A DNA stretch of 64,000 nucleotides from an uncultured delta proteobacterium (GCA_963815115.1 CAWFFN010000009.1:1824001-1888000), one strand, 5' to 3'. Positions 47,497-64,000 are shown, numbered from the stretch's first letter. The notes: generated by a model not told the origin, from the letters alone. Numbers and translations: made by a program.

Positions 47497-49491
47497 ATGA
47501 ACGTCCGCTCAGCTTCTCTCCCCCTGCTGCTCCTGCTGTCCGCCTCGCGCGGCTTCGCCGGAGTCTGCACCACCGGCCCGACCGACCCCGCCAGCCTCGG
47601 CATCGACCTCTCCCAGCAGGCGTTCTGCGACCCGCTGGTGCCGGAGCAGTGCATGCTGCCCTTCCCCAACGACTACTTCACCGTCGCCGATGCCAGCTCC
47701 AAGACGCGGCGGCGCATCCACTTCACGCCCCAGGGCCTGCCGAAGAACGACGCGGCCGTCCCGCTGGACTCCACCGAGCTCAACCGGTCCGACGGCTTCA
47801 GCCCGGGCGCGGCCCTGCTGTTCTGGATGCCGGCCGCCGACCTGGTGCGCTCGAACGCCCCGGCCATCAACGACATCGGACGGTCCCTCGAGCCCGGCTC
47901 GCCCATCGTCATCGTCGACGCGCGCAGCGGCAAGCGCGTGCCGCTGTGGGCCGAGCGCGACCTGCTGTCGGCGCCGGGAAGCCAGTCGCTGATCGTGCGA
48001 CCGGCGATCGACTACACCGACGGGCGCCGGTACGTCGTCGCCATCCGCAGCCTCGTCGACGCCGACGGGAATGCGATACCGCCGTCGCCCGCCTTCGCCG
48101 CGTACCGCGACGGGACCTGCACGACGGACGCGACCTTCGAATCCCGCCGTCCGGCGATGGAGGAGGTCTTCCGTACTCTGGGTAAGGCCGGAATCGATCG
48201 CGGCGGTCTCCAGCTGGCGTGGGACTTCACGGTCGCCAGCACGCAGAGCACCACTGGCCGGATGCTCAAGATCCGCGACGACGCCTTCAAGGCGCTCGGC
48301 AGCAAGGCGCCCACGTTCACCATCACCTCGGTGCAGGAGAACCCGTCGCCGCAATTCCGCCGCCGGGTCCAGGGGACGTTCGAGGTCCCGCTCTACCTCA
48401 CCGGCGACGGCAGCCCCGGCCAGCGCTTCGCGCTCGGTCCCGACGGGCTTCCGCAGCGCCAGCCGCTTCCGTTCACGGCGACCTTCACGTGCAACCTGCC
48501 GAACAGCGCGATTCCCGGGCCGGCGCGCATGAGCATGTACGGTCACGGACTCCTCGGGGACCAGAGCGAGGTCAACGGCTCGCTCGTCCGTCCCATGGCC
48601 GCCACCTACAACGTCGCCTACTGCGCCACCGACTGGATCGGCATGGCGGAGGAGGACATCGGCAACGCCATCGCCGTCCTGCAGGACCTCTCGCAGTTTC
48701 CGAGCCTGGCCGACCGGCTCCAGCAGGGACTCCTCAACTTCCTCTTCCTCGGCCGGCTGATGAAGCACCCCGATGGCTTCGCCAGCAACGACGCCTTCAC
48801 GATCGACGGCGCGCCCGCGCTCAACACCAAGGAGCTGTACTTCGACGGCAACAGTCAGGGCGCCATCCTCGGCGGCTCCCTGTGCGCGGTGGCCCGTGAC
48901 TTCCGCCGGTGCGTCCTCGCCGAGGCCGGCATGAACTACTCGACCCTGCTGAACCGCAGCGTCGATTTCGACCTCTACAAGCTCGTGCTCGACGGGAGCT
49001 ATCCGGATCCGTTCACCCAGCTGCTCTCGCTCAACATCGTCCAGATGCTGTGGGATCGCGGTGAGACCAACGGGTACGCCCAGCACCTGACCCGCAAGTC
49101 TCTCCCGCACACGCCGCAGCACACCATCCTGCTGCTCGGCGCCGTCGGCGACCATCAGGTGAGCGAGTTCGCGCTCCAGGTCGAGGCCCGCACCATCGGT
49201 GCCTACGGTCACGTCCCCTACGTCGCGTCCGGCCGCGAGTTCGGCGGCGAGCACGGCTTCGGCATCCCGCCGCTCCCGCCGTCCTCGTGGCCGCGTTCGG
49301 CCTACTTCCTGTTCGACACCGGCTCCCCGCTCTCGCCGCTGGAGAATCGCCCGCCGCGCGACGGTCACGATCCGCACGACGACACCCCGAAGATCCAGGC
49401 GGCGCAGCAGCTGAAGGACATGTTCTGGAGGCCGCGGGGGTTCGTCAACGACGTGTGCAACGGAGGGCCGTGCACCGGGCCGCAGTTCTGA
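47497..49491 (+). CDS. Secreted alpha/beta hydrolase with N-terminal Ig-like/lipase-associated domain
   Basis: Signal peptide, PFPND, DGFSP, YGHGLLG, GNSQG nucleophile elbow, GDHQV, DPH. Confidence 0.82.
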   Translation: MNVRSASLPLLLLLSASRGFAGVCTTGPTDPASLGIDLSQQAFCDPLVPEQCMLPFPNDYFTVADASSKTRRRIHFTPQGLPKNDAAVPLDSTELNRSDGFSPGAALLFWMPAADLVRSNAPAINDIGRSLEPGSPIVIVDARSGKRVPLWAERDLLSAPGSQSLIVRPAIDYTDGRRYVVAIRSLVDADGNAIPPSPAFAAYRDGTCTTDATFESRRPAMEEVFRTLGKAGIDRGGLQLAWDFTVASTQSTTGRMLKIRDDAFKALGSKAPTFTITSVQENPSPQFRRRVQGTFEVPLYLTGDGSPGQRFALGPDGLPQRQPLPFTATFTCNLPNSAIPGPARMSMYGHGLLGDQSEVNGSLVRPMAATYNVAYCATDWIGMAEEDIGNAIAVLQDLSQFPSLADRLQQGLLNFLFLGRLMKHPDGFASNDAFTIDGAPALNTKELYFDGNSQGAILGGSLCAVARDFRRCVLAEAGMNYSTLLNRSVDFDLYKLVLDGSYPDPFTQLLSLNIVQMLWDRGETNGYAQHLTRKSLPHTPQHTILLLGAVGDHQVSEFALQVEARTIGAYGHVPYVASGREFGGEHGFGIPPLPPSSWPRSAYFLFDTGSPLSPLENRPPRDGHDPHDDTPKIQAAQQLKDMFWRPRGFVNDVCNGGPCTGPQF

Positions 49492-49828: not shown

Positions 49829-52800
49829 TCAGACGATCCAGCGGACGGGACGTGACGAATCGCACAGGTAGATGCAGCGCGTCCCGGTCCGGATGCGGAC
49901 GAGCAGATGCTCGGCGAGCGCGGGCATCTGCGGCGAGATGCGGCGCAGCGCACCCCGGATCCGCTGCGTCACCGTCGAGCGCGCGCGCTCTGCAGCCGCC
50001 GGATCGGCACCGTCCAGGTCCGCGCCTTCGGCAGCGAGATCGAGCGCAAGAAGCGGCTCGCCGGCGCAGGCGAGCAACCGGGCCAGGTAGCGCAAACCCT
50101 TGGTGTCGCGCATGCGGGCGACCTGGCCATTCCAGCCGAGTGTCCACACCTCGCCGTCGCGCAGGAGGATGCCAGTGCTGGGCGCGACCTGCGGCGAGGA
50201 CGTCGCGACGTGCCCGGCCGGAGCGCGCCCGCGGGCGGCGAGCTCGAGTCCGACGGCGCGCTCGAGCACGACGGGCATGCCGAGCCTGTCGGCGATGTCC
50301 ACCGCCGCCGCCGCCAGGGTCGCGGCTCGCGACCGGTCGCCCGGGCCGTTGCGCGCGAGCAGCAGCTCCGCCCAGTGGCAGCGCGTGCGCGCCGTCCACG
50401 GCACGGCGCCGAGGCCCTCGTCGAATGCCAGCGCTGCCGCGAAGTGATGCTCCGCCTCGTCGACGCCCCCGAGCTCGCCCGCGAGGAGGCCGAGGTACGT
50501 CGCGCTGCATCCCCAGTAGGCGGCGAGGTGGCCCAGCACGACGGCGCGCGTACCGTACGGCGCCAGCCGTGCGTGCAGGACGCGTGCGGCGCCGGTGTCG
50601 TGCAGGAGCGCGCTGAGCTCGGCGAGCATCGTCACGGTCGGAAGAAGGAATCCGTCGGGGGCGAGCCGATCGAGGTCGCGGGCGACCAGTCGCCTGAGCG
50701 CCTCGCGTGCCTCCGGCACGCGTCCGATCTGGGCATGGAGGAGGGCGAGCCCCGCCTCGCACAGGAAGCGGCGGGGATGGGAATCGATCTGGAGGCCCAT
50801 CTGCGGCTCCATCTCCGCCAGCCGTCCCTGCTCCCGCCGCAGCACGCTGCGCTGGCCGAACACGACGCTCGCGACGTCGTGGTCGGGGCGCACGCGTCCC
50901 GCGAGCGCCGAGACCGTGTCGATGGCACGGTCGGCGTCGGCGAGCTGTCCCCGCATGAGCAGCTCGAACCCGCGCAGGATCGCCCTCCAGTACTCGACGT
51001 CGATCGGCAGCCGCTCGCCGAGTCGGGCGTCGTGCAGCAGACGGCGGGCACCGCGTAGATCGCCCTGCTCGACCAGGTCGACCAGCACCTGGAAGATCGC
51101 GGCGACCACCTTGTCGGGGTCGCCGAGCGCGCGTGCCGCGCGCAACGTTTCGCGCGCCAGCGCCTGGCGCTCCTGGAGATCGACGGAGCCGAGCAGACCC
51201 CAGTGCCGGCTGGTTCCCGCGGCCGCGATCGCGCTGCGATCCCCCGAGTCGCGCGCCAGGGCGAGCGCCTGCGCGCTGAGCGCGTCGTGGGCACCTGCGT
51301 CGCCCCCGGCGAGTCCCTCGAGGGCGAGCTTCGCGAGCACCCGGGCGCGCAACGCGGGAGCGCGATCGCCCAGCGTGTCGAGGGTCGCTTCGAGAAGTCT
51401 GACATGCTCGCGGTCGACACCGAGGCTCAGCGAGAACTGCCCGCCACGAAACTGCAGCGCGGCACGAACGAGAACATCGGGCAGGGCGAGGTGCGCCGCG
51501 AGATCGGCCGCTGCGAGGACCGCACGCCGCGCGGCCTCCGCATCTCCCGCCCGCGAACGTGCCTCGCCCAGCGCGAGGAGCAGCTCGGCCCGCTTCCTCG
51601 CGTCGACGGGCGGTGCCAGCTCGAGCGCGTCCAGGGCGCCGCCGAAGTGACGGCCGGCATCCTCCCATTCCCAGCGCGCGTTCGCCTGCGCCGCCGCGCG
51701 CTCCGACCAGGCAGCGGCCTGACCGGCGCAACCGATCGTCGCCGCGAGGAAGAAATGGCGCGCGATGGCTGCCGCAGGAGGGTCGGTCGCTTGCGTGTGG
51801 AGGGCGACGAGGGCCCCGGCGACGGCGTGGTGGAGGCGCGCTCGCGTGCGACCGTCGAGCTCGTCGTACAGCGCTTCCTGGATGAGACCGTGAGTGAATC
51901 TCCACCGTCCCGGCCGCCCGGGCCGCTCGTCCAGGATTCCCTCGCGCACCGCCTCGTCGAGGAGCGCGAGCACGTCGACGCTCGACGGCGCGACGACGCG
52001 CTCCACGACCGGCTGTGCGCACTCTTCTCCGATGACCGCGATCAGCCGCAGCAGACAGGTGCAATCGGGCGACACGTGCGCCAGGCGCCGGCGGGCGACG
52101 GCGCGCACGCCGTCGGGGATCACGGGCGCTCCGTCTTTCCGCCCGAGGAGCTCGATCAGCTCACCGATGAAGAACGGATTGCCCCCGCTCCGCCTCGCGA
52201 GGGCGGCGACGATCGAGGAATCCGCCGCACCACCCGCCGCGACGGCCACCCAGCTGGCGATGGCCGCTTCGTCGAGGCCGGCGAGGGGGATCCTGCGCGT
52301 GGCAGGTACCCGATGCATCGTGTCGGGGGACGCGAGCTCGCCCGTCCGGATCGTGCCGACGATCGCGAGCCGCGTTCCTTCGAGCCGTGCGGCCAACGAC
52401 CGGAGCAACGCGAGTGACCCCGGGTCCGTCGCGTGCAGGTCGTCGAGGACGATGAGCAGCGGACCCCGCGCTGCGGTCTCACAGACGCTCCGCACCCATT
52501 CGGCGGGATCGGGCGAGCCGGGTTCGGAGTCACGCGAGGGGTGTCCGGCTCGCAGCGCCGTCAATCCGCGCATCACCTGGAGCCACGGCCCGTACTCCGT
52601 CGGGTCATCCTCGACCGCCGAAGCCCACAGGACGTCGAATCCGCGGTCTCTGGCCGTCGCCGCCAGCGCCTGCGCCGTGCGCGTCTTGCCGATGCCGTCC
52701 TCGCCCGTGAGCAGGACGAGCCGTCCATCGCCTTCCGCGGCCGCTGCCAGCTCCGCTCGCAACGTCGCGAGCTCGCGCTCCCGACCCACGAACGGCCGCG

Positions 52801-52906
52801 CGGGGGCTGACGGGGCGAGCGGGGGTGGCACCGCGTGCAGCGCGGACACATCCTCGTCGCTCCAGGGCGTTCGAGCGCGCTCCGGGGCGAGTTCCGCCGT
52901 GTGCAT
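49829..52906 (-). CDS. STAND/AAA ATPase + TPR-like transcriptional regulator
   Basis: FVGRERE, GEDGIGKT, LDDLH, GGNPFF, C-terminal ERARSTVT...IRTG; start could be 53035. Confidence 0.85.
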   Translation of the reverse strand: MHTAELAPERARTPWSDEDVSALHAVPPPLAPSAPARPFVGRERELATLRAELAAAAEGDGRLVLLTGEDGIGKTRTAQALAATARDRGFDVLWASAVEDDPTEYGPWLQVMRGLTALRAGHPSRDSEPGSPDPAEWVRSVCETAARGPLLIVLDDLHATDPGSLALLRSLAARLEGTRLAIVGTIRTGELASPDTMHRVPATRRIPLAGLDEAAIASWVAVAAGGAADSSIVAALARRSGGNPFFIGELIELLGRKDGAPVIPDGVRAVARRRLAHVSPDCTCLLRLIAVIGEECAQPVVERVVAPSSVDVLALLDEAVREGILDERPGRPGRWRFTHGLIQEALYDELDGRTRARLHHAVAGALVALHTQATDPPAAAIARHFFLAATIGCAGQAAAWSERAAAQANARWEWEDAGRHFGGALDALELAPPVDARKRAELLLALGEARSRAGDAEAARRAVLAAADLAAHLALPDVLVRAALQFRGGQFSLSLGVDREHVRLLEATLDTLGDRAPALRARVLAKLALEGLAGGDAGAHDALSAQALALARDSGDRSAIAAAGTSRHWGLLGSVDLQERQALARETLRAARALGDPDKVVAAIFQVLVDLVEQGDLRGARRLLHDARLGERLPIDVEYWRAILRGFELLMRGQLADADRAIDTVSALAGRVRPDHDVASVVFGQRSVLRREQGRLAEMEPQMGLQIDSHPRRFLCEAGLALLHAQIGRVPEAREALRRLVARDLDRLAPDGFLLPTVTMLAELSALLHDTGAARVLHARLAPYGTRAVVLGHLAAYWGCSATYLGLLAGELGGVDEAEHHFAAALAFDEGLGAVPWTARTRCHWAELLLARNGPGDRSRAATLAAAAVDIADRLGMPVVLERAVGLELAARGRAPAGHVATSSPQVAPSTGILLRDGEVWTLGWNGQVARMRDTKGLRYLARLLACAGEPLLALDLAAEGADLDGADPAAAERARSTVTQRIRGALRRISPQMPALAEHLLVRIRTGTRCIYLCDSSRPVRWIV

Positions 52907-53367
52907 GTTGCCCTTCGGCGGTACGACGGCAGGAGACGCTTCGGATCTGTGAGCGGACGGACCTGGCGATGCTGAGTGCCGGGCGGCGGCGCGGACCGCG
53001 CTCCCCCTACGCGGCCGCGCCGGGCCGCCCGTCACGGCTCGCCGAGATGCAACGCATGCCCCCGAGATCGGGCGCGTCCGTCCCCCTCCGGCGGGAGCTC
53101 GTGCTGCGCGACGACGCCGCGACGGAGGCGGCGCTCGGAGCTACCCCACGGACGCGCGTGCCGGTCGGATGACGATCGCATGTTCCTCCGTACGCGACCC
53201 CGCTGAGACGCAGATGGGCGAGGACAGGGCGCGATTCGCGCCGCTCAGTCGAACCCGACTCGCCCGTGTCACGAATGGGTCCCGAGAGGCGGGGACATCA
53301 CGTCGTGACGCCGCGGGGCCGCTCTGGCAGGGGTCCGTTGGAGGGCGTCGGACGTGGCGCACCGGAC

Positions 53368-53394
53368 AGATCTGGTTGCCGACAAACCGTCGTA
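53368..53394 (+). promoter_or_regulatory. Putative ECF autoregulatory promoter
   Basis: AGATCT-N17-CGTA, same register as the promoter at 55686-55712. Confidence 0.45.
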
Positions 53395-53415
53395 GTGGTC
53401 TATAGAAGGGCAATC

Positions 53416-54012
53416 GTGGAGGCGAAGCAGGTTCTGGTCCTCCAGCCGCAACCGGACGATCTCGCGAGCCTCATCGCGCGGACGGCCCGCGGCGATGAGG
53501 TCGCGCTGGCGGACCTCTATGACCAGACGTGTGCGACGGTCTACGGGCTCGCCCTCCGCATTGCCCGGGACCGCCCGACGGCGGAAGAGGTGACTGCGGA
53601 CGTGTATCTGCAGGTGTGGCGGCAGGCCGCGCGATTCGACCCCGCGAGGGGGACGCCGCTCTCCTGGTTGCTCGTGCTGACGCGCAGCCGCGCCATCGAG
53701 CAGCTGCGCGCCCGTGCCCGGCAGCTCGAGGAGCCCGGACATATGGACGAGATGCCGGAGAGGGCGGAGGAGGGACCCGGCCCGGAGGAGCAGTCCGCGG
53801 CGGCGCAGCGCCGTCGCCTCGTCCGCCGCGCGCTGATGGAGCTCCCGCACGAGCAGCACCAGGTGATCGAGCGGGCGTACTTCCTCGGCCTGAGCCACGC
53901 CGAGATCGCCGTGATGCTCGGCGAGCCGCTCGGTACCGTGAAGACGCGTATCCGTCTCGCGATGGTCCGCCTGCGCTCGGCGCTCGCGATGGTGCGTGAG
54001 GGGGCTCTCTGA
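53416..54012 (+). CDS. ECF sigma-70 factor (SigK-like)
   Basis: ALADLYD, AEEVTADVYLQVW, LSHAEIA...PLGTVKTRIR. Confidence 0.92.
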   Translation: MEAKQVLVLQPQPDDLASLIARTARGDEVALADLYDQTCATVYGLALRIARDRPTAEEVTADVYLQVWRQAARFDPARGTPLSWLLVLTRSRAIEQLRARARQLEEPGHMDEMPERAEEGPGPEEQSAAAQRRRLVRRALMELPHEQHQVIERAYFLGLSHAEIAVMLGEPLGTVKTRIRLAMVRLRSALAMVREGAL

Positions 54013-54554
54013 GCCAGCCTCACTGCAGCTTCGCCGATGCCGTGGCGCTGCACGCCCTCGGTGCCCTCGATCCCACCAGTGCCGACGCGTTGCGGGCGCA
54101 CGTCGAGGCAGGGTGCGTCGCGTGCCGGTCCGACGCCGAGGGTTTTGGCGCCGTGGCGCGCGACCTGGCGTTCGACGCCGTGCCCGAGAGGCCCGACCCC
54201 GGGCTGCGCGCCCGCGTGCTCGGCCGTGCCCGCGCCGACGTGGTGCAGCGCGAGCCGGCGAGCGCATCCTCGCGCACATGGCGTGAGGTCCGGAGCGGAA
54301 TCTGGCGCCACGTCGTCGAGGCGTCGCCGCGCGGGCGCTCGTACCTGATCCGGATGGCACCGGGTGCGGCCTCGGGACCCCACGTGCACCGCGTGCGCGA
54401 GGAGTGCTGGGTGCTCTCGGGCGACGTCCGGGTGGAGGCTCAGCTCTTGCGTGCGGGGGAGTCGTGCCGGACGGAGGCGGGTGCGGTGCATGAGGGAAGT
54501 GCGAGCGCCGGTGGGTGTTTGCTGCTGATCGTCGAGGAGGCCGCGGCGGGGTAG
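54009..54554 (+). CDS. Zinc-binding anti-sigma factor with cupin domain (ChrR-like)
   Basis: HVEAGCVAC zinc motif, cupin HVH...EECWVLSG...H; CTGA overlap with the sigma stop. Confidence 0.82.
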   Translation: MSQPHCSFADAVALHALGALDPTSADALRAHVEAGCVACRSDAEGFGAVARDLAFDAVPERPDPGLRARVLGRARADVVQREPASASSRTWREVRSGIWRHVVEASPRGRSYLIRMAPGAASGPHVHRVREECWVLSGDVRVEAQLLRAGESCRTEAGAVHEGSASAGGCLLLIVEEAAAG

Positions 54555-54711: not shown

Positions 54712-55628
54712 TCAGTTCTGGCCGAGCGGCAGCGCGACGTCCACGACCTGGTCGTTGAACGGGTCGAGCAGAGTCGCCTGCCCGGTCTGGAAGTTCACGC
54801 TGTAGAAGCCGGAGCCGTCGCTCGTGTTGAGCACGCCGAATCCCCGGTTGTCGACCGCCACCCCGCCCACCACGACGCTGTAGATGTCGAGGCCGGCGGC
54901 GAGCCCGGCGTCGACGCCGAGGCTACCGGTGGGGACGAGGTTGGCGGCGACGCCCCCGGGAATGCCGTTGGGTGGCGACTGCACGACGACCTGGTCCTGG
55001 TCGTGGCGACGTCGTAGAGCGTGGTCCCGGTGCTCGTGGCGAGGTCGTTGTTGGTGTAGGCCGCGGCGGTCACGCCCGTGGCGGTGACCACCAACGTGCC
55101 CGCCATGATCGTGAGCGGCGCATCGTTGATCGTCACGCCACCCGCATTGACGTTGTGACGCAGGTTCTGGCCGGTGTTGCTCAGGACCCGGAGCCGGTCG
55201 GCCGCCGGGTTGAAGTCGACCGCGAACGACGTCGCCGCGGGATCGAGCGGCACCGTCAGCTGGTTCACGAACGTCGCCTGTCCGGTGTTCGGATCGATCG
55301 TGTACACGCCGCCGCCGTTTCCGACGCCGTAGAGCTTGCCGTCCTGCACGCGGAAGTCGATGCCGATGAGCGCGCTGTCCGGGCTGCCGAGGCCCGTGAC
55401 GAACCCGACGACCTCCGCCTTGTCGGCCGAGCTCGTGGGAAAGCACAGCAGGCGGCCATCGGCGGTGAGGCCGACGGCCCTCAGGCTCTTGATCCGCGCG
55501 CTGCGACCCTTGCCGGTGTTGCTCACGCAGTTCCGTGCGGCGAATGCCTCGCCTCCGCCGAGCAGCAGCGCGATCGCGCCGGCGATGGCGGCGCGCTGGA
55601 TGGTGGACCCGGTTCTTCCATTGATCAT
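54712..55628 (-). CDS. DUF4394 domain secreted protein (one frameshift near 55005)
   Basis: Signal peptide, LIGIDFR...GKLYG, VDFNPAADRLR, GQNLR, AAAYTN; the C-terminus (QSPPNG, GSLGVD, YSVNFQTG) is in another frame. Confidence 0.82.
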
Positions 55629-55800: not shown

Positions 55801-56859
55801 CTAGCCGGCGACGCGCGCCGTGCTCGGATCGTTGCGGTCGTCGCGCCAGGGCGGATGGTTGAAGTGCACGACGTGGTCGCCATTGTAGGAGGCGACGGCG
55901 TCGTCGAAGGTCATCGTGCCGACCTGGCGCCAGCCGGTGATCTCGCGGCGCTCCTTGAGCGGGCTGCCGCGCGTCACGCCCTCGTCGGAGGTCTCGATGC
56001 GAAAGGTCAGGGTGCGCTTCGGCTCGGGATCGCCGGGGTCGAAGATCTGGGCCATGATCTCGTCGCGGAAATCGAGGCTGTCGCCCGGGATGATGGGCTG
56101 ATCGGGGACGACGGAGAGCTGCATGAACTCGGGCGCGCGGGTCCGCTCGCGCGTCGGCTTGCCGAGCTCGGCGAGCTGGTACACCTGGCGAGCGGACGGT
56201 CTCTTGTCGGCGAGCATGAGCACGATTGCCGTCGCCAGCAGCACTGGCAATCCGCTGCCACGGCGGAAGGCCGTGGTGTTCGGCGCATTGCGAAGGACGG
56301 CCTGGTTGATGCTGGCACTGTCGTCGCCGCCGATGTCCTGCTGGGTGATGAAGCTGGCCGTCGGCAGCGGCTCGGGATGCCGGGGATCCGTCGTCGGATA
56401 GACCCGTCCCACGAGGGCCAGCGATCGGGTGTGCCCCCTGCGGGTCTCGGTGCAGCAGGTCGAGTAGCGCGCGACGATCAAGCCACGGCTGCCCTTCCGG
56501 AAGAAGCCGGTGTAGGGGGTCTCGTCGGTGATCTGCCACATCCCGGTCAAGCAGATGCCGTTGGGATGCAGGAGCCGGCGGTAGCCCTTGCCGTCCGGTC
56601 CCCAGCGCAGGTCGGCCTGCGAGGCCACGGAGCGGCGCGCGGCGGAGAGAAACTGCCACGGCTTGCCGAACGGGAGGACGCCGCGCAGCACGCTTCCGAG
56701 GGTCACCGGAAACCTCTCGAGAGGCGGCTCGCCGACCGCCCCCCAAACCTTCTGGTAGGGGTTGGCGAAGATCGCATCGCGGACCGTGGCGAACCGCGAC
56801 CCGGAGAACCGCCGGTCCTCCTCGGTCAGGCCCTCGATGCCGAGCGATTCTCCGCTCAT
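55801..56859 (-). CDS. Catalase-fold-like hypothetical protein
   Basis: RRLLHPNG (distal-His-like), YTGFF, VARYS motifs typical of the catalase-related N-terminal barrel; GGAGAGG RBS. Confidence 0.6.
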   Translation of the reverse strand: MSGESLGIEGLTEEDRRFSGSRFATVRDAIFANPYQKVWGAVGEPPLERFPVTLGSVLRGVLPFGKPWQFLSAARRSVASQADLRWGPDGKGYRRLLHPNGICLTGMWQITDETPYTGFFRKGSRGLIVARYSTCCTETRRGHTRSLALVGRVYPTTDPRHPEPLPTASFITQQDIGGDDSASINQAVLRNAPNTTAFRRGSGLPVLLATAIVLMLADKRPSARQVYQLAELGKPTRERTRAPEFMQLSVVPDQPIIPGDSLDFRDEIMAQIFDPGDPEPKRTLTFRIETSDEGVTRGSPLKERREITGWRQVGTMTFDDAVASYNGDHVVHFNHPPWRDDRNDPSTARVAG

Positions 56860-56872
56860 CCTCTCCCTCTCG

Positions 56873-58768
56873 TCATCCCCGCGCGGCCGCGGCGATGACG
56901 CCGGCGGCCTTCTCGCCGATCATGTAGACCGGGGTGACGATGAAGAACCCGGGAATCCTCGGGAAGATCGAAGCGTCGACGATGCGCAGCCCGCGTGTCC
57001 CGTGAACCTCGAAGTTGCCGTTCACGACGCCCCCTTGGCTCGGTTCCCCGATCGGGCAGGAGCACGAGGCGTGATGCCCCCAGGCATTGTCCTTCACGAA
57101 GTCGGCGATCTGGTCGTCGGTCTGCACGCCCGCTCCCGGCAATTCCTCCTCGGCGACGACTCCCTTCCGACGGAGACGCGCCGTCAGCTTGCGCACGAAC
57201 TTGACGCCTTCGACGACCGACGTGAGGTCGTCGCCCCGTGCGTCGCTCCCCTCGGTGAAGTAGCGAAAGTCGATGTCGGGCGTGTCGAGCGGATCGGCCG
57301 AGCGCAGCCGCACCGTTCCTGCGCGGTTTTGCGTGTGAGCCTTGAGAATGGCCCAGGTGAGGTAGTTCCGATTGCCCGCGAAGAGCTTCGAATAGCCCGG
57401 GAAGTAGCCGCGGAAGAGGCCGAGAAGCGCAAAGATGAAGAGGTCGGGCACGGGGCGTTCGGGCACGGATCGCTTCACGATCGCAGCGACGGCGCCGTTG
57501 GTCGTGTAGACTCCGTCGCGCTTCGTCTTCCACTCCTCGTACTGTGGATCGCCCGCAGCGAACTTCGCCCCCTTCAGCACCCACCACTCCGGAAAGTTCA
57601 TCCGGTTGACGACGCCGACCTCGTAGCGGTCCTGCAGATTGGAGCCGACGCCGGGGAGATCGATCCGAACCACGATGCCGTGCTTCTCGAGCTCCGCGCG
57701 CGGGCCGATACCGGAGAGCAGGAGGAGCTGCGGTGTGTTGTAGGCGCCGCCAGCGAGGATGACCTCGCGTGAGACGGGGACCTGGCGCGTCACCCCTGGC
57801 TCGTTCGCCGGGTGCTCGTGCGCACGATAGAGGCGCCGTCCCTTGAGGTACTCGACGCCGACGGCGCGGTTGGTGTCGTCGAACAGCACACGGGTCGCCA
57901 GGGCATCGAGCTCGACGGTGAGCTTGTCGGGACGCTTCGCCGCCACGTCGAGCACGCGCTCACGGCTGCCGTTGCGGGCGTGATGCTTCGTGGCCAGCGG
58001 GGTGTAGCGCAGGCCCGTCGAGTCACCGTCGACGAGGCGCCAGTCGTTCGGATCGCCCTTGCCGAGCAGCGACCAGCGAATTCGCTCGAGGAGCGGTGTG
58101 CCGATGGCGCGTTCCTCCGCGGCGATCGTCTTGATGAGGAACTTGTCGAGGTTCTCGTCCTTCACGGCCGCTTTCGGGATCGCGGCCTCGGTGTTCAGCC
58201 ACCCCTTGAATCCATGGCGGGTCGGATTGATCCCGGTGAGCTTCTGCAGGAAGCGCCACCCGGGACGGTGGTGGCAGTTCTCCATCAGCTCGAAGTGCTT
58301 CCGCATGCTCTTCGGCGACCAGGAGCTGTCACCGGTCAGCTCCTCGATGAATCGCCAGTCGTCGTTGTGCGGATAAACGGTGATCTGGGCGTTGTGCGCG
58401 GTGCAACCGCCAAGCGTGCCGGCGCGCGGGTAGAGAACGCCGTCGACGCGCTTCCCGTCACATGTCTCGACGTACTTGGGATCGCGGTTCTGGAGCGTAT
58501 CGTCCCCGTAGTGGCGGACGAAGAAGTCCCACTTCAGGGCGCCGTTCTCGGACGCGAAGGCGTGAAAGCACGGAACGTTGTAGTCGTCGGGCAGACGGTT
58601 GGAGGAGGTTGGATCGGCGGCGTGCATCTCGACCGCATCGCCACCCGCCTCGAGCAACAGAACCCTGTAGCCCTCTTCCGCGAGCCGGGCGGCGACCGTT
58701 CCGCCTCCGGCTCCCGATCCGACGACCACGTATTCGTACTCGGCGCGAGGGAGTCCTTCGATTGCCAT
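56873..58768 (-). CDS. GMC family FAD oxidoreductase
   Basis: VVGSGAGG, GTLGGCTAHN, GAYNTPQLLLLSGIG, VGSNLQD, HHASCSC, LRIVDASIFP. Confidence 0.92.
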   Translation of the reverse strand: MAIEGLPRAEYEYVVVGSGAGGGTVAARLAEEGYRVLLLEAGGDAVEMHAADPTSSNRLPDDYNVPCFHAFASENGALKWDFFVRHYGDDTLQNRDPKYVETCDGKRVDGVLYPRAGTLGGCTAHNAQITVYPHNDDWRFIEELTGDSSWSPKSMRKHFELMENCHHRPGWRFLQKLTGINPTRHGFKGWLNTEAAIPKAAVKDENLDKFLIKTIAAEERAIGTPLLERIRWSLLGKGDPNDWRLVDGDSTGLRYTPLATKHHARNGSRERVLDVAAKRPDKLTVELDALATRVLFDDTNRAVGVEYLKGRRLYRAHEHPANEPGVTRQVPVSREVILAGGAYNTPQLLLLSGIGPRAELEKHGIVVRIDLPGVGSNLQDRYEVGVVNRMNFPEWWVLKGAKFAAGDPQYEEWKTKRDGVYTTNGAVAAIVKRSVPERPVPDLFIFALLGLFRGYFPGYSKLFAGNRNYLTWAILKAHTQNRAGTVRLRSADPLDTPDIDFRYFTEGSDARGDDLTSVVEGVKFVRKLTARLRRKGVVAEEELPGAGVQTDDQIADFVKDNAWGHHASCSCPIGEPSQGGVVNGNFEVHGTRGLRIVDASIFPRIPGFFIVTPVYMIGEKAAGVIAAAARG

Positions 58769-58784
58769 GGATGGTCTCTTCCGC

Positions 58785-61346
58785 TCAGAACGTCTTCAGG
58801 AAGGCGATCAACGCGTGCTTGTCGGCGTCGGAGAGACCCGGTTCACCTTCGCTCTCGGGAAGGAAGTCGGTGCCGAAGTAGTGGCCGCGGTTGACGACGA
58901 AGTCTTTGCATTTGCTGACATCGAGGAGATCCTTCACGAGCGGAGCGAACTTCGTCCTGGCCTGCTCATCGCTGTAGTTCGGCGGCAGCTCGTGGAGGTC
59001 GTTCTTGATCTCGAGCAGGAGATCGACGACCCGATCGCCCTTCGTGAGGTCGATGTTGGAAAGGAGGTTGATCGGGGTTCCCTTCGGGATGGGCCCGATC
59101 TTCACGCCCCCCGGACTGAGCACATTGGGGAAGAACCGGGCCAGCGGTCCCAGAAGTTTCGCCAGCGCCGGCGGGAGGTACCCGGGAGCGACGCTCAGAT
59201 AGGTACTGTCGGAAGTCACATCGACGATGCCGGGGTGCGACTTCCCGGAGACCGTGACGTAGCTGCGGTCGCCCTCGCGCTTCTCGGGCCAGAGCATCTT
59301 CGTGATGCCGTCTTCGAACGCCTCCTCGCGATCCTTGACCGACCCGCTCCATCTGAACCCACCGACGGTGTTGTTCTGCAGATACGGTGCGGTTGCCCAG
59401 AGGCTGATCAGGGATGCCGGCCGCGTGAAGCCCCGGCCCCCGCCCGGCACATCCCAGGTCGAAGCAGCGCCGGTGTACGGGTCATGGATGAGGATGCTGC
59501 CGACGGACGGCAGAGTCTTGTACGACTCCGAAGAGAAGTTGTCCCAGATGTTGTCGCGGAGGGCGTTCGTCGCCAGGGGGCTGCAGGCGTTGGTCTCGAG
59601 CAGCGTCACCGGCACGCGCAGCTCGGTGGAGAGGAAGTTGTCGTCCAGGAAGTCGGAGGCGATGACGATCTGCTGCATCTGATCCTTGAATTCGCCGGTC
59701 TTGGTCCACTGCCAGTAGTCCTTCCAGCACTGGAGGTAGCTCGGACCGATACACCCCGGCTGCATGAAGCTCGTGAAGGCTTTCTCCGGGAGCTTGCTCG
59801 AGTGGCACCGCGCGCAGCGCTCCGCGAACACCGCCTTGCCACGCGGCACCTGCCCGACATCGGCCGCGAGGTAGGCGGCGCCGCCGGGCGCGTTCCTCAG
59901 GTAGTCGGGCCTGGCGCTGGCGAGAAAGAACAGGGCGAGATCGAGCGTCTGGGCCACGTTCGCCTGCCAGTACGTGGAATTCTTCTCGGCATCGGCGATC
60001 CTGATCGGGGAGATCGGGAAGAGGGCGGTGCCACCGAAGAGTGGCCTGAAGTGGAGCAGCCACTCCTCGCTGAACAGGCCGATGTTGAGGTAGACGCGGT
60101 TGAGCGCTCCGAGTCCGCCGACCGAGTCGGCGCCGTCCTTGAGGACGTGGGTCGTCAGCACGGTCTGCGTGGCCGGGTCGTAGAACTTCGACAGCGGAGC
60201 GCCGGGCGGGACGTAGTCGTTGAACTGCTTGTTGTTCACGCTTCCGCCGGCGAGGTGCTCGGCTCCCCACTTCCGTGCGATCTCGAGCCGCGCGCCGAGA
60301 TTGTAGATCGCGTTCATCGTGCGCGGGTTGTTGATCTGATCCGACGAGACGAGCGACGTGTCGAGCGCGCCGGGCCGGGAAGTGTGGAAGAGCTGGAAGA
60401 TGAAGCTCTTCTCCTCGTTCGTGCGATTCCACATGAAGATCCGGTCGATCCAGAAGTACTGCGCGCCGGGGTTGCTGTTCAGGTTCGCCCAGGCGGGATT
60501 CTCCGGATCTGCGGGGGGGTTGGTCGGATTCGGTCCGACGTGGCAGAAGCCGCACGACATGCCCACGCGGTACGGCTTCACCAGGTCGGCGCGGTTGTAG
60601 TACGACTCGTCGGTGTAGTAGGGGTCCCGGTCCCTCTTCGGACCCCGTGCCGCATCCCACGCCTGCTGCGCTTTCTCGTCGAAGTCCGGGTTGGGAAACA
60701 GTCGCAGCCCGACGATGCCGGTGGCGTAGCCGTAGTAGGAGCCGAGCGCCAGCTTGCCCGTGCCTCGGGCACCGATCTTCACGCCCGGGTATTTCTGCTC
60801 GTTCTCGAAGGGATCGGGTGGGCAGCCGGGCCCATCGACACGCTCGTCCAGCCAGAGGCCCCAGCGGTCCTCTCGCGGTCCGGTCGCCTTCCGGAAGCAG
60901 GGCTCGTTGACGAGGCCGAGCTCCTTCCACCGGTTGTCGCGATTGGCCCTCAGGCTGGGATGGTTCGAGAGGGTCTTCAGCAGATCGAGGTTGCCGGCAC
61001 TGCTGCGGGACAGCACGTCCCACAAACGGTCGTTGCCGGCCGTCCAGACGATCCAGTTGTTGCGGCCGCGAACGGCAGCCTTCGCCGCGACGTCGGCGGT
61101 GATGCCCGGGACGTACGGATCCAGCGCGGCGCGGAGCGCCTCGGGATTCTTCGTGATGCCGTAGTCCATGTCGCGATAGTAGTCTTCATCGGCTGCGGTC
61201 AGGCTCGCAGCATTTCGGCCCGCCAGCCTGGCCTCGTCCAGTACCGTTCCAGGCTGTGGTTTCTTTCCCTGAACGTGGTTCCAGACGAGCAGGCCGCCGA
61301 TGGCTCCGACCACGATGACGACGAGCGCGAGCACGAGCTTCCCCAT
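58785..61346 (-). CDS. Large membrane-anchored/exported diheme c-type cytochrome (RoxA/bCcP-like superfamily)
   Basis: N-terminal TM/signal, CGFCH and CARCH motifs, WATAPYLQNN, C-terminal GHYFG...LSDADKHALIAFLKTF. Confidence 0.8.
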   Translation of the reverse strand: MGKLVLALVVIVVGAIGGLLVWNHVQGKKPQPGTVLDEARLAGRNAASLTAADEDYYRDMDYGITKNPEALRAALDPYVPGITADVAAKAAVRGRNNWIVWTAGNDRLWDVLSRSSAGNLDLLKTLSNHPSLRANRDNRWKELGLVNEPCFRKATGPREDRWGLWLDERVDGPGCPPDPFENEQKYPGVKIGARGTGKLALGSYYGYATGIVGLRLFPNPDFDEKAQQAWDAARGPKRDRDPYYTDESYYNRADLVKPYRVGMSCGFCHVGPNPTNPPADPENPAWANLNSNPGAQYFWIDRIFMWNRTNEEKSFIFQLFHTSRPGALDTSLVSSDQINNPRTMNAIYNLGARLEIARKWGAEHLAGGSVNNKQFNDYVPPGAPLSKFYDPATQTVLTTHVLKDGADSVGGLGALNRVYLNIGLFSEEWLLHFRPLFGGTALFPISPIRIADAEKNSTYWQANVAQTLDLALFFLASARPDYLRNAPGGAAYLAADVGQVPRGKAVFAERCARCHSSKLPEKAFTSFMQPGCIGPSYLQCWKDYWQWTKTGEFKDQMQQIVIASDFLDDNFLSTELRVPVTLLETNACSPLATNALRDNIWDNFSSESYKTLPSVGSILIHDPYTGAASTWDVPGGGRGFTRPASLISLWATAPYLQNNTVGGFRWSGSVKDREEAFEDGITKMLWPEKREGDRSYVTVSGKSHPGIVDVTSDSTYLSVAPGYLPPALAKLLGPLARFFPNVLSPGGVKIGPIPKGTPINLLSNIDLTKGDRVVDLLLEIKNDLHELPPNYSDEQARTKFAPLVKDLLDVSKCKDFVVNRGHYFGTDFLPESEGEPGLSDADKHALIAFLKTF

Positions 61347-61363: not shown

Positions 61364-64000
61364 CTACGAGGAGCCGCCCTGGGATCGCGCCCGGCCCAGC
61401 ACGCCCGAGAGGTCCGTGAGCTTCGAGCTGGCGCTCCCGATCGCCGACAACGCGCCAACGAGCCTTGCCCATCCCTCCGGCTGGGCGAAGTACAGTACCA
61501 GCCCGGCGGCGATCAGCACGTAGGTCAGCAGTCCGCGGGTTCGATCCCACAAGCTGTCACCTTCGGCTCGCTCCCACGCGACGACCCGCGCCGGCGGCTC
61601 CTCGTGCGCGACGAAGTTCTGGAAGCTCTCGTTCATCGGCCGGGGCGCCGGGGTGAACCGTACGAGTCCCGCTCGTGCCAGCCCCTGCGCCAGACGCCAG
61701 TTCCTCGGATTGACGAGGCCTTCACTCACCAGCTGCGCCAGCAGCAGCTGCTCCTCCTCGGAACACTGCAACCAGAGGCGGCGGTAGTGTGCACCAGCGA
61801 CCTGCTCGAGCCGCCGGACGACGCCCTCGGCAGGCGGAGGGAGCGACCACACTTCCCAGGCGATACCCCGGAGCCGGGGTGTCCAGCGCGTCTCCTCGAC
61901 GAGCTGCTGCACCTCTTCCGTGCGCCACGGCACGGTCACCCGCGTCGGGAGCCACAGCCAGCCGGTGCGATCGGCCTCGTCAACCGCGACCGCCAGAGAG
62001 ACGAGTGACTCGGCGTCGGAGGGTGCCGCACCCGCGGGCACGCGCGCCAGGCGCTCGAGCACCCTCGCCCAGCGCACGGCGTCGTTCGGAACCGGCGTGC
62101 CGGCCGGCAGCGTGCGCTTGCGGAAGTGAGCCAGGGGATCCGTCTCGGAGCAGACCACCAGCGGCTTCGGTTGACGGGACACCAGCGTCTCCAGCAGCTG
62201 CAGCGCCTGCTCACCGCGCGCGGGATCGTCGAGCGCCGCCTCCAGGTGGTGCACGATCACCACCGGGGCGGGCGACCAGACGCGGCCGAGCGCTTCCTCT
62301 CGCCCCGGAGCCGACTGGTCGTCACTCAGATCGAAGACGTCGGCATGCACGGCCTCGCCGGCGAGGAGCGCGCCGCTGCCGATGACCAGCAGCCCGCGGG
62401 CGTGCTGAGCTTCGGTCGGAAGCGTGCGCCTGCCGCCGTGTTCCTCGTCGAGTCCGACGATGCAGGCAGCCAGCCAGCGCAGGACCAGCCAGAGGAGGCT
62501 CGCAAAGACGAGGAAGCCGCCGATCACGCCCACGCGCTGCCACGTGCCCGACGGGGTCAGTCCGGGGACCGGGACCGTGCTCGCGATGCGACTCACCTGG
62601 TGCGGCCCGCGGCCCTCTTCCGTCGAGCCGCCCGCCCGGTCGCGGCGCAGGCGATACCAGCACAGTTCCCCGGTGCCGTCGGCGTGCCGCGTCCATCCCC
62701 AGCGCTCGTCGACCGCCTGGCGTGTCAGCAGCTCGCGCGTCTGGATCAAATCCTCGCTGTGGATCGGCAACAGCTCCAGGATGGGTGCGGAGACGTGTCC
62801 CGACGCCACCGCGAGGCGCCACAGCCGCTCGACGGGTCCAGCGAACGGCTCGGCCGGGCCGGACTCGACGCATCGTTCGTCTGCCTTCCGGACGCCCCCC
62901 TGGAGCGCCACGCCGAAGAGACGACCCGGGACCACTTCGGCGCTCTGCGATCCACTTCCGCCACTCGCTGGCGACCCGATCCATCCGCGCTGTCTCAGCT
63001 CGAGCAGCTCGGGGCAGATTCCGGCCGCCTCGTACTCCGCCTTGTTGGTCTCCTGCAGTCGTTCCACGTCCTCGGCGAGCTTGAGCTGGCCGTTGCGGAC
63101 GAACGCCTCCATTCCGAGCTCCCACGAATCGCGCAGGAGTGCGGCAGAGGGAATCACCACGGCCAGCACCAGGATGAGGACGCCGACGGTGACGAAATCG
63201 TGCCGCCATCCCATCCAGGTGCCACCGGCGCCCCGCCACGCTTGCACGACGGCGACCACGAACAGAACCGCACCGAGGCCGGCCGCGAGAGCCGTCCCCT
63301 GGATCATTGCCGCCAGGCAGACGACTGCCAGGACGAGCCAGACGATCCGGGAGCGCGCCGCGACGACGAGCGCAGCCGGCGGCCGAGCCTGCGGGTTGAG
63401 CAGGAGCCTCACGCACGCGAGGCACATCCCGATGATGGTCACGAGCATGGCGAACAGACGTGGCGAGACGCTTGGTCTCGTCGCCAGAAGCCACGTCGCG
63501 GTCGCGCAGCTGCCGGCGAGGACGAGGATGCACTGGCGGTACTGGAGGGCGCTGGCTTCCGACGGCCACAGCCGGTTGTTCCGTGTTCGCGGCGTGAGCA
63601 GACACCACACACTCCAGACGATGCCGCCCAGCGCCAGGTAGACGAGAAAGCCGATGGACCAGCCAAGGAGCCCGTCGAGATCGTGCGAGAGCTGCTTCTC
63701 CCGATTGCGCATGACCACGAGCGTCCAGGGTGAAAAGTTGATCGGGGTGATCAGGAAGCGATACGGCGCCCCCCGGTATTCACCGCTCAGGAAGCGCTCC
63801 TGCCGCGCCTCGATCGCCGCCCGGGCGCCATACTCGACGGTGACGTCCTCGAAGAAGTCCTCGAACAGCCGATGCTCCTGGGATTCGGGGAACACGACTC
63901 GCCCGTCGTTCTCGATGATCGCGAACGCGAAGTCGGTGGGCAGTACCGGCCGCGACACCGACACGAAATGGGGCGTTGCGGAAACGATGCCCTCGAAGTT
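61364..64000 (-). CDS. Large multi-pass membrane protein (Cache-like region, degenerate ATPase/winged-helix-like C-terminus), 5' end outside the window
   Basis: Open frame to the window edge; FAFAIIENDGRVVF Cache-like segment, many TM segments, C-terminal LWLQCSEEEQLLL...GLARAGLV. Confidence 0.65.
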   Translation of the reverse strand, partial: NFEGIVSATPHFVSVSRPVLPTDFAFAIIENDGRVVFPESQEHRLFEDFFEDVTVEYGARAAIEARQERFLSGEYRGAPYRFLITPINFSPWTLVVMRNREKQLSHDLDGLLGWSIGFLVYLALGGIVWSVWCLLTPRTRNNRLWPSEASALQYRQCILVLAGSCATATWLLATRPSVSPRLFAMLVTIIGMCLACVRLLLNPQARPPAALVVAARSRIVWLVLAVVCLAAMIQGTALAAGLGAVLFVVAVVQAWRGAGGTWMGWRHDFVTVGVLILVLAVVIPSAALLRDSWELGMEAFVRNGQLKLAEDVERLQETNKAEYEAAGICPELLELRQRGWIGSPASGGSGSQSAEVVPGRLFGVALQGGVRKADERCVESGPAEPFAGPVERLWRLAVASGHVSAPILELLPIHSEDLIQTRELLTRQAVDERWGWTRHADGTGELCWYRLRRDRAGGSTEEGRGPHQVSRIASTVPVPGLTPSGTWQRVGVIGGFLVFASLLWLVLRWLAACIVGLDEEHGGRRTLPTEAQHARGLLVIGSGALLAGEAVHADVFDLSDDQSAPGREEALGRVWSPAPVVIVHHLEAALDDPARGEQALQLLETLVSRQPKPLVVCSETDPLAHFRKRTLPAGTPVPNDAVRWARVLERLARVPAGAAPSDAESLVSLAVAVDEADRTGWLWLPTRVTVPWRTEEVQQLVEETRWTPRLRGIAWEVWSLPPPAEGVVRRLEQVAGAHYRRLWLQCSEEEQLLLAQLVSEGLVNPRNWRLAQGLARAGLVRFTPAPRPMNESFQNFVAHEEPPARVVAWERAEGDSLWDRTRGLLTYVLIAAGLVLYFAQPEGWARLVGALSAIGSASSKLTDLSGVLGRARSQGGSS

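Follow-up and report, generated by a model that had tools for sequence, protein, structure and literature searches.

Among the described di-haem c-type cytochrome enzymes, those closest to the system reported here are RoxA and RoxB of Steroidobacter cummioxidans 35Y (4b2n; NF050033, NF050034; excerpts of PMC6311187) and the FadCCPs PA2077 and PA2078 of Pseudomonas aeruginosa, an oleate 10S-dioxygenase and a 7,10-diol synthase (excerpts of PMC4496055). RoxA and RoxB hold two CxxCH haems in an enlarged, loop-rich core of the bCcP type, PA2077 and PA2078 are periplasmic di-haem proteins of the same superfamily that act on fatty acids, and the excerpted texts give all four a His in the MauG motif. 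Here we describe a related system in a 64,000-nucleotide stretch of DNA (hereafter, the window) from an uncultured delta proteobacterium (GCA_963815115.1 CAWFFN010000009.1:1824001-1888000). Three intact open reading frames (ORFs) on its minus strand, at 61346-58785, 58768-56873 and 56859-55801, encode a di-haem protein (P0001, 853 residues), a GMC flavoenzyme (P0002, 631 residues) and a catalase-fold protein (P0003, 352 residues). The tight, co-directional packing recorded in the first-pass annotation is borne out by gaps of 16 bp between P0001 and P0002 and 13 bp between P0002 and P0003, and a purine-rich stretch precedes each ATG. Because all three belong to large families (at least 6413 homologue matches for P0001 and at least 3057 for P0003), they are not chance frames. 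The conserved unit is the pair of di-haem and GMC genes, to which the catalase-fold gene is an optional addition. Each of the three proteins lies in a known superfamily, yet fails a defining test of its nearest characterised family.

The pairing was examined in species-representative genomes, where a scan with P0001 confirmed 319 of 337 candidate stretches, the best of them returned as 77 loci. A GMC gene of the P0002 subfamily was present in 61 of the 77; of the 61 loci with 3 kb or more of downstream flank 54 have it, and of the 45 flanked by 8 kb or more on each side, 41. The catalase-fold gene was present in 11 of the 77 (in one case at 28% identity), and the exact gene order of this locus in six. 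The reverse test, with P0003, drew on 80 metagenome loci, the best 80 of at least 511; 24 of them are flanked by 3 kb or more on each side, and of these 10 carry the GMC gene, 10 the di-haem gene, 14 some gene of the module and the other 10 no further module gene. When 301 genomes were sampled evenly from the phylum to which the locus L019 genome belongs, 11 close di-haem loci and, in the same eight genomes, 11 loci of subfamily GMCs were found. As read from the coordinates, all 11 pairs coincided within 3.2 kb (nine of nine when the seed genome is excluded); six genomes with more distant di-haem homologues lacked the subfamily GMC, and 13 with other GMCs had no di-haem match. The catalase-fold gene occurred in three of the 301, all among the eight pair genomes, and was adjacent in two. 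The genomes of this sample are related rather than independent, and the counts are hence given without a P value. The locus had been proposed to be a dedicated, uncharacterised oxidative module built of three genes. The module is conserved, and lipid is its best-supported substrate class (below), but an obligate trio was rejected, with the catalase-fold gene in 11 of 77 loci and often apart from the other module genes.

The di-haem protein and its main features are as follows.

58785..61346, minus strand: P0001, di-haem c-type cytochrome enzyme of 853 residues, from an unnamed family of the bCcP/MauG/RoxA fold; core gene of the module.
61281..61337, minus strand: predicted N-terminal membrane anchor or signal of P0001, residues 4-22 (hydropathy 2.9; helix in the model).
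60540..60554, minus strand: haem-1 attachment motif CGFCH, residues 265-269.
59802..59816, minus strand: haem-2 attachment motif CARCH, residues 511-515.
58881..58883, minus strand: His822, invariant in 35 of 35 alignment rows and predicted to be the other axial ligand of haem 2.

P0001 had been annotated as an exported protein of about 850 residues with two CxxCH motifs. Its length and both motifs agree with this, the Cys, Cys and His of each motif being invariant in 104 of 104 alignment rows, whereas "exported" is more exactly a predicted N-terminal membrane anchor or signal, the single hydrophobic helix of the protein. P0001 belongs to the bCcP/MauG/RoxA di-haem superfamily, with its two CxxCH motifs in the shared core fold, as the first-pass annotation had anticipated. 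Its model (predicted local-distance difference test score, pLDDT, 86) had RoxA as the top Foldseek row (E 0.018), and a wide structure search (VIA) returned seven rows at Z 8.2-6.2, which are modest scores given that the tool calls Z under about 8 common. All seven were bCcP-superfamily chains (hydrazine synthase, MauG, YhjA, BccP, RoxA, a MauG-like copper-homeostasis protein and BthA), with a root-mean-square deviation (rmsd) of 4.0-4.8 over 240-351 aligned residues, and the next row scored 3.9. A P0001 profile matched the NF040606-type proteins of the fetched loci with a probability of 98.8, and the profile of those proteins matched RoxA at E 2e-30. By analogy with RoxA as described in excerpts of PMC6311187, haem 1 is likely the active-site haem. 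Haem 2 is predicted to be bis-His (His515 and His822), as with His394/His641 in RoxA; His822 aligns to the C-terminal GH motif of RoxA-like proteins (profile match probability 97.5), which carries the second haem-2 His and which P0001 has in common with RoxA and RoxB, together with a WATAPY-type motif and predicted export.

The RoxA, RoxB and RoxC NCBIfam models gave no match to P0001 at E 0.1; the best curated match, NF040606, reached 29.5 bits against a cut-off of 150; the MauG motif PYxHNGSVP reads TAPYLQNNTVG, with Gln657 in place of the His; and the profile alignment of the haem-1 pocket to RoxA has a probability of 85 and low column confidence. Within the family this His is replaced by Gln or Leu. 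Among 98 homologues from the loci, those above 50% identity are without it wherever the motif was read, and 11 of the 13 below 45% keep it, the other two not being read. A paralogous, His-keeping di-haem clade (36-43% identity) often shares a locus with the His-less clade (L012, L013, L020, L025, L006, L074, L089, L096 and others). By motif spacing, Lys403 tentatively occupies the position of MauG Trp93 and RoxA Trp302, where the profile alignment is of low confidence, and Ile422 (35 of 35 rows) tentatively that of RoxA Phe317. Loss of the inter-haem Trp is compatible with activity, by analogy, because RoxB has Val at this position (excerpts of PMC6311187) and BthA has no such Trp according to the excerpted text of PMC6405878. 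P0001 was rejected as a RoxA, given the silent Rox models and the missing MauG-motif His; it further differs from RoxA in its 853 residues with a predicted membrane anchor, its haem spacing (246 residues vs 199) and its GMC partner. It was likewise rejected as a FadCCP, for its NF040606 score and the absent His of PYxHNGSV, and it is about 220 residues longer than these enzymes; its haem spacing is near the 245 of PA2077 and 235 of PA2078 (excerpts of PMC4496055), a likeness of spacing and not of directly compared sequences. A plain electron carrier was rejected for the protein's size of about 850 residues, just two haems and an enzyme-type fold. PDB sequence searches with P0001 and the queries A1 and A3 gave generic CxxCH matches only.

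The partner enzyme carries the following features.

56873..58768, minus strand: P0002, GMC flavoenzyme of 631 residues, from a distinct subfamily; core gene of the module.
58394..58396, minus strand: His125 in GGCTAHN, conserved in 40 of 40 rows and aligned to the SSHN motif of a choline oxidase.
57071..57076, minus strand: His565-His566, each in 40 of 40 rows; His566 is aligned to the GMC catalytic His.
56942..56944, minus strand: Phe609, conserved in 40 of 40 rows; most GMCs have His or Asn here, as the second residue of the active site.

P0002 is a member of the GMC superfamily, with a GxGxxG motif for flavin adenine dinucleotide (FAD) and both GMC domains (64.5 and 103.2 bits for Pfam GMC_oxred_N and _C, against cut-offs of 23 and 24.6). 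It has no N-terminal extension, no hydrophobic helix and no leader, and the earlier description of a GMC flavoenzyme without an evident signal peptide thus stands. With choline oxidase and dehydrogenase, fatty acid photodecarboxylase and bacterial alcohol oxidases it has the FAD motif, both Pfam domains and the catalytic His in common, and it scores below every NCBIfam equivalog cut-off (BetA 175 vs 732, MftG 132 vs 387), for which BetA and MftG were rejected as its identity. The limits of the subfamily are sharp, with scores against alignment A5 of 430-1030 bits for its members and 125-199 for other GMCs. The SSHN-motif His of choline oxidase carries covalent FAD, and His125 of P0002 is predicted to be the site of a covalent FAD as well. 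Phe609 aligns in sequence to Asn in four solved GMC chains, so that P0002 has a His-Phe pair and departs from the typical GMC alcohol oxidase or dehydrogenase, in which the second residue is His or Asn. Not all members are leaderless. Among 76 GMC ORFs longer than 520 residues from the loci, of which the nine longest, most leader-like N-termini were read by eye, seven have a twin-arginine leader, six of these with a lipobox. At loci L006 and L109 a hydrophobic helix links the GMC to a catalase-related domain of another kind.

The third gene encodes the catalase-fold protein.

55801..56859, minus strand: P0003, catalase-fold protein of 352 residues, an optional partner, without the C-terminal helix that bears the proximal Tyr.
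56566..56568, minus strand: His98, aligned to the catalase distal His by a weak profile alignment to catalase 9t0l; 121 of 121 rows.
56179..56190, minus strand: R224-Q-V-Y227, a family-specific motif; R224 and Y227 in 121 of 121 rows.

P0003 had no Pfam or NCBIfam match, and PDB sequence searches with P0003 and the query A2 gave nothing significant. The proposal of a catalase-like barrel was nevertheless upheld by structure: the model (pLDDT 93) matched 3e4w at a Foldseek E of 3e-5, and the wide search returned catalase-family chains only, at Z 10.4-11.6 (rmsd 3.6-5.0 over 181-203 aligned residues of the beta-barrel fold), the next unrelated row being at 5.5. Coral allene oxide synthase (1u5u), MAP2744c (3e4w) and chanoclavine synthase (9jdb) scored 11.1-11.6. 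Neither P0003 nor the multi-pass membrane protein described below has an entry in the Atlas, where a homologue returned unnamed clusters (0.97) and a cluster in which 37% of members carry Pfam Catalase (0.94). As in catalase-related haemoproteins, there is a distal His and an Arg-x-Ser strand, and H98, R131 and S133 are invariant in 121 of 121 close homologues. P0003 differs from these proteins in an extra N-terminal part of about 65 residues, in Gln173, which by motif only lies at about the place of the distal Asn (121 of 121 close rows, 58 of 81 wider rows) and is tentatively its replacement, and in the absence of a proximal Tyr.

In the 121 close homologues the chain ends a median of 18 residues past His335 and the tail is free of Tyr in every one; among 76 wider rows some tail Tyr occurs in seven and RxxxY in none. 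A C-terminal helix with the Arg-x-x-x-Tyr of the proximal ligand was not found in P0003, and the structural alignments end before it: that to coral allene oxide synthase stops at residue 336-339 of the latter, whose proximal haem ligand is Tyr353 (excerpts of PMC5617202). Because the canonical helix is missing, P0003 is unlikely to be an ordinary catalase-type enzyme, and a typical catalase was rejected on the same ground. Besides Tyr227, the residues Tyr35, Arg76 and His335 are invariant in the family and His332 is nearly so (119 of 121); Tyr227, Tyr35 and His332/His335 are candidate replacement haem ligands, or else P0003 may be haem-free. In the GMC fusions of L006 (12510-15692) and L109 (6767-9877), the C-terminal helix of the second catalase-related domain, read by eye, has its Arg but is missing a Tyr at the fourth residue after it, so that the module may have lost the Tyr ligand on two occasions. 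The P0003 profile did not significantly match two catalase-related domains from fusion proteins (probability 0.4).

Fusions also bear on where P0003 would act. A weak DUF4331 match lies N-terminal of the catalase-fold domain in eight of 18 longer homologues scanned, and six such fusions that were checked have a leader, two to four membrane helices (three in five of them) and then the catalase-fold domain. Because the domain sits behind a leader and membrane helices, this architecture would put it on the cytoplasmic side. At locus L139:5769-9395, on one metagenome contig, a single ORF of 1209 residues joins a catalase-fold protein, a hydrophobic helix and a di-haem protein.

The genes that recur beside the module point to lipid. 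In the 77 loci the recurring neighbours were a membrane patatin (15, in several lineages), two DUF4331 types (13 and 14), TPR proteins (12), DyP-type peroxidases (10), a molybdenum oxidoreductase with a multihaem cytochrome (8) and NF040606-like di-haem proteins (7). The NF040606 enzymes of loci L017, L046, L060 and L034 score above the cut-off, and that of L046 has the haem spacing of PA2078 (235; excerpts of PMC4496055), to which it was compared by spacing alone. A DyP-type peroxidase and two proteins of 405-435 residues without a Pfam match accompany the pair in nine of the 77 loci (L043, L049, L056, L057, L059, L069, L070, L075 and L076). The molybdenum oxidoreductase recalls, by description only, OxiAB, a molybdenum enzyme that handles aldehydes after rubber cleavage (excerpts of PMC7413915). 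The remaining neighbours, scanned as 180 representatives, were mostly unrelated housekeeping genes; the lipid-related ones were four further patatins, two Lipase_3, two YhhN, one ceramidase and two P450. In a survey of 21 plasmid records, Rhizobium pRL11 carries two RoxA-like cytochromes, the di-haem gene, the GMC gene and a patatin in a row, and Mesorhizobium pOM4 carries a GMC-patatin fusion (the membrane patatin is fused to the GMC once, in Mesorhizobium), DUF4331 and the catalase-fold gene. A Rhizobium INSeq preprint (10.1101/2020.05.07.082560) lists pRL110509 as a putative oxidoreductase that nodule bacteria require, a tag that carries no weight in the present reading. Of the eight pair genomes of the even sample, seven have a patatin somewhere, against at least 25 of 293 others. 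Among neighbours whose substrate class can be recognised, lipid hydrolases occur most often, and lipid is the best-supported substrate class.

In the genome studied here, past the window end and on the other strand (L080 5677-14690, plus strand), lies a divergent run of an alpha-dioxygenase homologue, DUF4331, TPR and a membrane patatin, of which the last three recur beside the module in other genomes. The patatin, about 11 kb upstream, has eight helices and its three motifs intact. The alpha-dioxygenase homologue (L080 5677-8976, about 5 kb upstream of the module; E 2e-55 to the rice enzyme) keeps the residues matching rice H157, H311, T316, Y379, H382 and R559 in an alignment to 4kvj, among them the catalytic Tyr, two haem His and the carboxylate-binding His and Arg (roles from excerpts of PMC8720084). 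It retains the key residues of the plant and cyanobacterial enzymes (4kvj, 4hhr) and differs from them in its length of about 950-1000 residues, its insertions, a lipoprotein-like leader (by eye) and its rarity beside the module.

We tentatively favour, at slightly less than an even chance, a module for the stepwise oxidation of a membrane-derived fatty acid or similar hydrophobic compound. Its observed ground is the genes, folds, conserved residues, one-to-one pairing and recurring neighbours; the chemical steps we infer. The fatty acid would be released by a membrane patatin phospholipase, whose gene is often close by. At haem 1 of the di-haem enzyme, taken to be anchored in the membrane and to face outward, O2 would then be added to it or a lipid hydroperoxide rearranged, while the bis-His haem 2 would store electrons, as in RoxA and in the oleate 10S-dioxygenase of Pseudomonas. 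Since some lineages export the GMC and others do not, the oxygenated lipid would travel to it through the membrane, and the GMC, with its predicted covalent FAD and hydrophobic His-Phe site, would convert hydroxyl or aldehyde groups into ketones or acids. Interchangeable accessory enzymes (the catalase-fold protein at the inner membrane face, DyP, alpha-dioxygenase, FadCCP-like enzymes and the molybdenum oxidoreductase) would make or dispose of lipid hydroperoxides and aldehydes. Lineage-variable export of the GMC fits a membrane substrate better than direct electron transfer, and the GMC leaders, together with catalase-fold domains fused behind three membrane helices or before a di-haem anchor, fit a substrate inside the membrane. 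Besides the departures of P0001 from known oxygenases, the distribution of the lipid genes counts against this reading. The patatin is missing in 35 of 45 well-flanked loci and, in the even sample, lies within 10 kb of one of the 11 pair loci; and because alpha-dioxygenase is near the module in none of the 77 genome loci and one of the 80 metagenome loci, its presence here may be incidental. Variable export of the GMC, moreover, fits a diffusible peroxide equally well.

That last point leads to a peroxide coupling of the kind first suggested for the locus, in which the GMC is an oxidase whose hydrogen peroxide (H2O2) crosses the membrane and drives a di-haem peroxidase or peroxygenase, while the catalase-fold protein and DyP manage the peroxide. 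We consider it unlikely. P0002 keeps the His of the choline-oxidase motif, but a covalent FAD is no proof of oxidase behaviour; pyranose dehydrogenase also carries one. H2O2 would bridge the two compartments and explain the strict pairing, and DyP genes accompany the module in 10 of 77 loci; a generic peroxide source, however, needs no specific GMC subfamily, and the 13 even-sample genomes with other GMCs have no di-haem partner. The di-haem fold is that of H2O2-using enzymes (excerpts of PMC6405878), yet the predicted bis-His haem 2 and the large size match RoxA, which has no peroxidase activity according to the excerpted text of PMC6311187. P0003, for its part, is without the canonical proximal Tyr of catalase.

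The strict one-to-one pairing also speaks for a flavocytochrome dehydrogenase, in which electrons that the GMC takes from a small soluble substrate would go directly to the di-haem cytochrome and from there into the respiratory chain. In flavoprotein-cytochrome sugar dehydrogenases, electrons pass directly from flavoprotein to cytochrome; the twin-arginine leader of seven of the 76 GMC ORFs would place the GMC in the periplasm with the cytochrome, and eight of the 77 loci also have the molybdenum oxidoreductase and multihaem cytochrome. Most GMC ORFs, P0002 included, are nonetheless leaderless, and a conserved twin-arginine carrier subunit was not seen among the neighbours. At 850 residues, with two haems and the fold of an enzyme, the di-haem protein does not resemble an electron carrier, and three loci have the GMC in one chain with a patatin or, across a membrane helix, with a catalase-related domain; we regard this explanation as improbable. 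There is a similarly small chance that the pair acts on no lipid at all but on aromatic compounds or polymers of the soil or, like MauG, on residues of a protein or peptide. RoxA scores no better in the fold search than do the MauG, BthA and MbnH-type folds, two rhizobial plasmids carry LodA/GoxA and tyrosinase genes at up to about 10 kb, and the DUF4331 (13-14 of 77 loci) and TPR (12 of 77) proteins could be targets. The pair has, however, no conserved accompanying substrate protein, and the sole hint of protein modification comes from a Mesorhizobium plasmid, on which a single LodA/GoxA gene lies some 7 kb away from the module. The MauG inter-haem Trp appears, tentatively, as Lys403, haem 2 is predicted to be bis-His and not His-Tyr, and the neighbours with a recognisable substrate class are most often lipid hydrolases.

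The locus itself extends beyond the three genes. The run is one of four, since the gene of a membrane protein of about 1470 residues ends 17 bp before the di-haem gene.

61364..64000, minus strand: 3' part of the gene for the multi-pass membrane protein (about 1470 residues), which continues past the window end; an occasional partner of the module.

This protein has eight predicted helices and no confident Pfam match (a weak dCache_1 match at E 0.03), and is possibly a sensor; its homologues lie near module genes in loci L102, L115 and L120. The whole gene, including the part beyond the window, occupies L080 1365-5777, and a paralogue exists elsewhere in the genome. A consensus scan found no promoter, and no terminator on the coding strand. 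P0001, P0002 and P0003 each occur once in this genome, in which cytochrome c assembly genes are present, and their G+C is 65-69%, against 70.4% for the genome. The module appears to be mobile. P0001 was not found in any of 40 relatives, four of the same genus included, and P0001 and P0003 were each not found in any of 300 other genomes of the source phylum; for this reason we infer that the module in this genome was acquired.

Several other genes of the window were noted. Just downstream, a DUF4394 gene (54712-55628, minus strand) is split between two frames near 55010, profile positions 2-150 falling in the first and 149-230 in the second; the gene is a pseudogene unless the assembly is in error. 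An ECF sigma factor and its ChrR-type cupin partner (53266-54554, plus strand) and an AAA_16 ATPase regulator (49829-53035, minus strand) are ordinary, and no link of either to the module was found. At 47497-49491 (plus strand) lies a 664-residue protein with a leader, no Pfam match at E 1 and a GNSQG motif, which we take to resemble a hydrolase nucleophile elbow.

No description of this module was found in the open-access literature, subscription papers and bioRxiv supplements lying outside the search. The di-haem family occurs in acidobacteria, nitrifiers, methanotrophs, marine gammaproteobacteria and rhizobia and fits no curated model, and few catalytic types are known in its superfamily (peroxidases, MauG, rubber oxygenases and oleate dioxygenase), to which a new one would be a real addition. 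It is a doubtful but far-reaching prospect that the pair forms the core of an undescribed, widespread bacterial oxylipin pathway with three new enzyme chemistries, namely a membrane-anchored di-haem oxygenase family lacking the MauG-motif His, a GMC whose His-Phe site would take oxygenated lipids, and a catalase fold in which a residue different from the canonical Tyr holds the haem or there is no haem. The catalase fold lacking its usual Tyr ligand and the His-Phe GMC site each pose a directly testable question of enzymology, and the presence of the core pair with a patatin on pRL11 of the laboratory strain Rhizobium johnstonii 3841 makes genetics easy. If the lipid reading is true, the module would be a common bacterial oxylipin route in soil and water.

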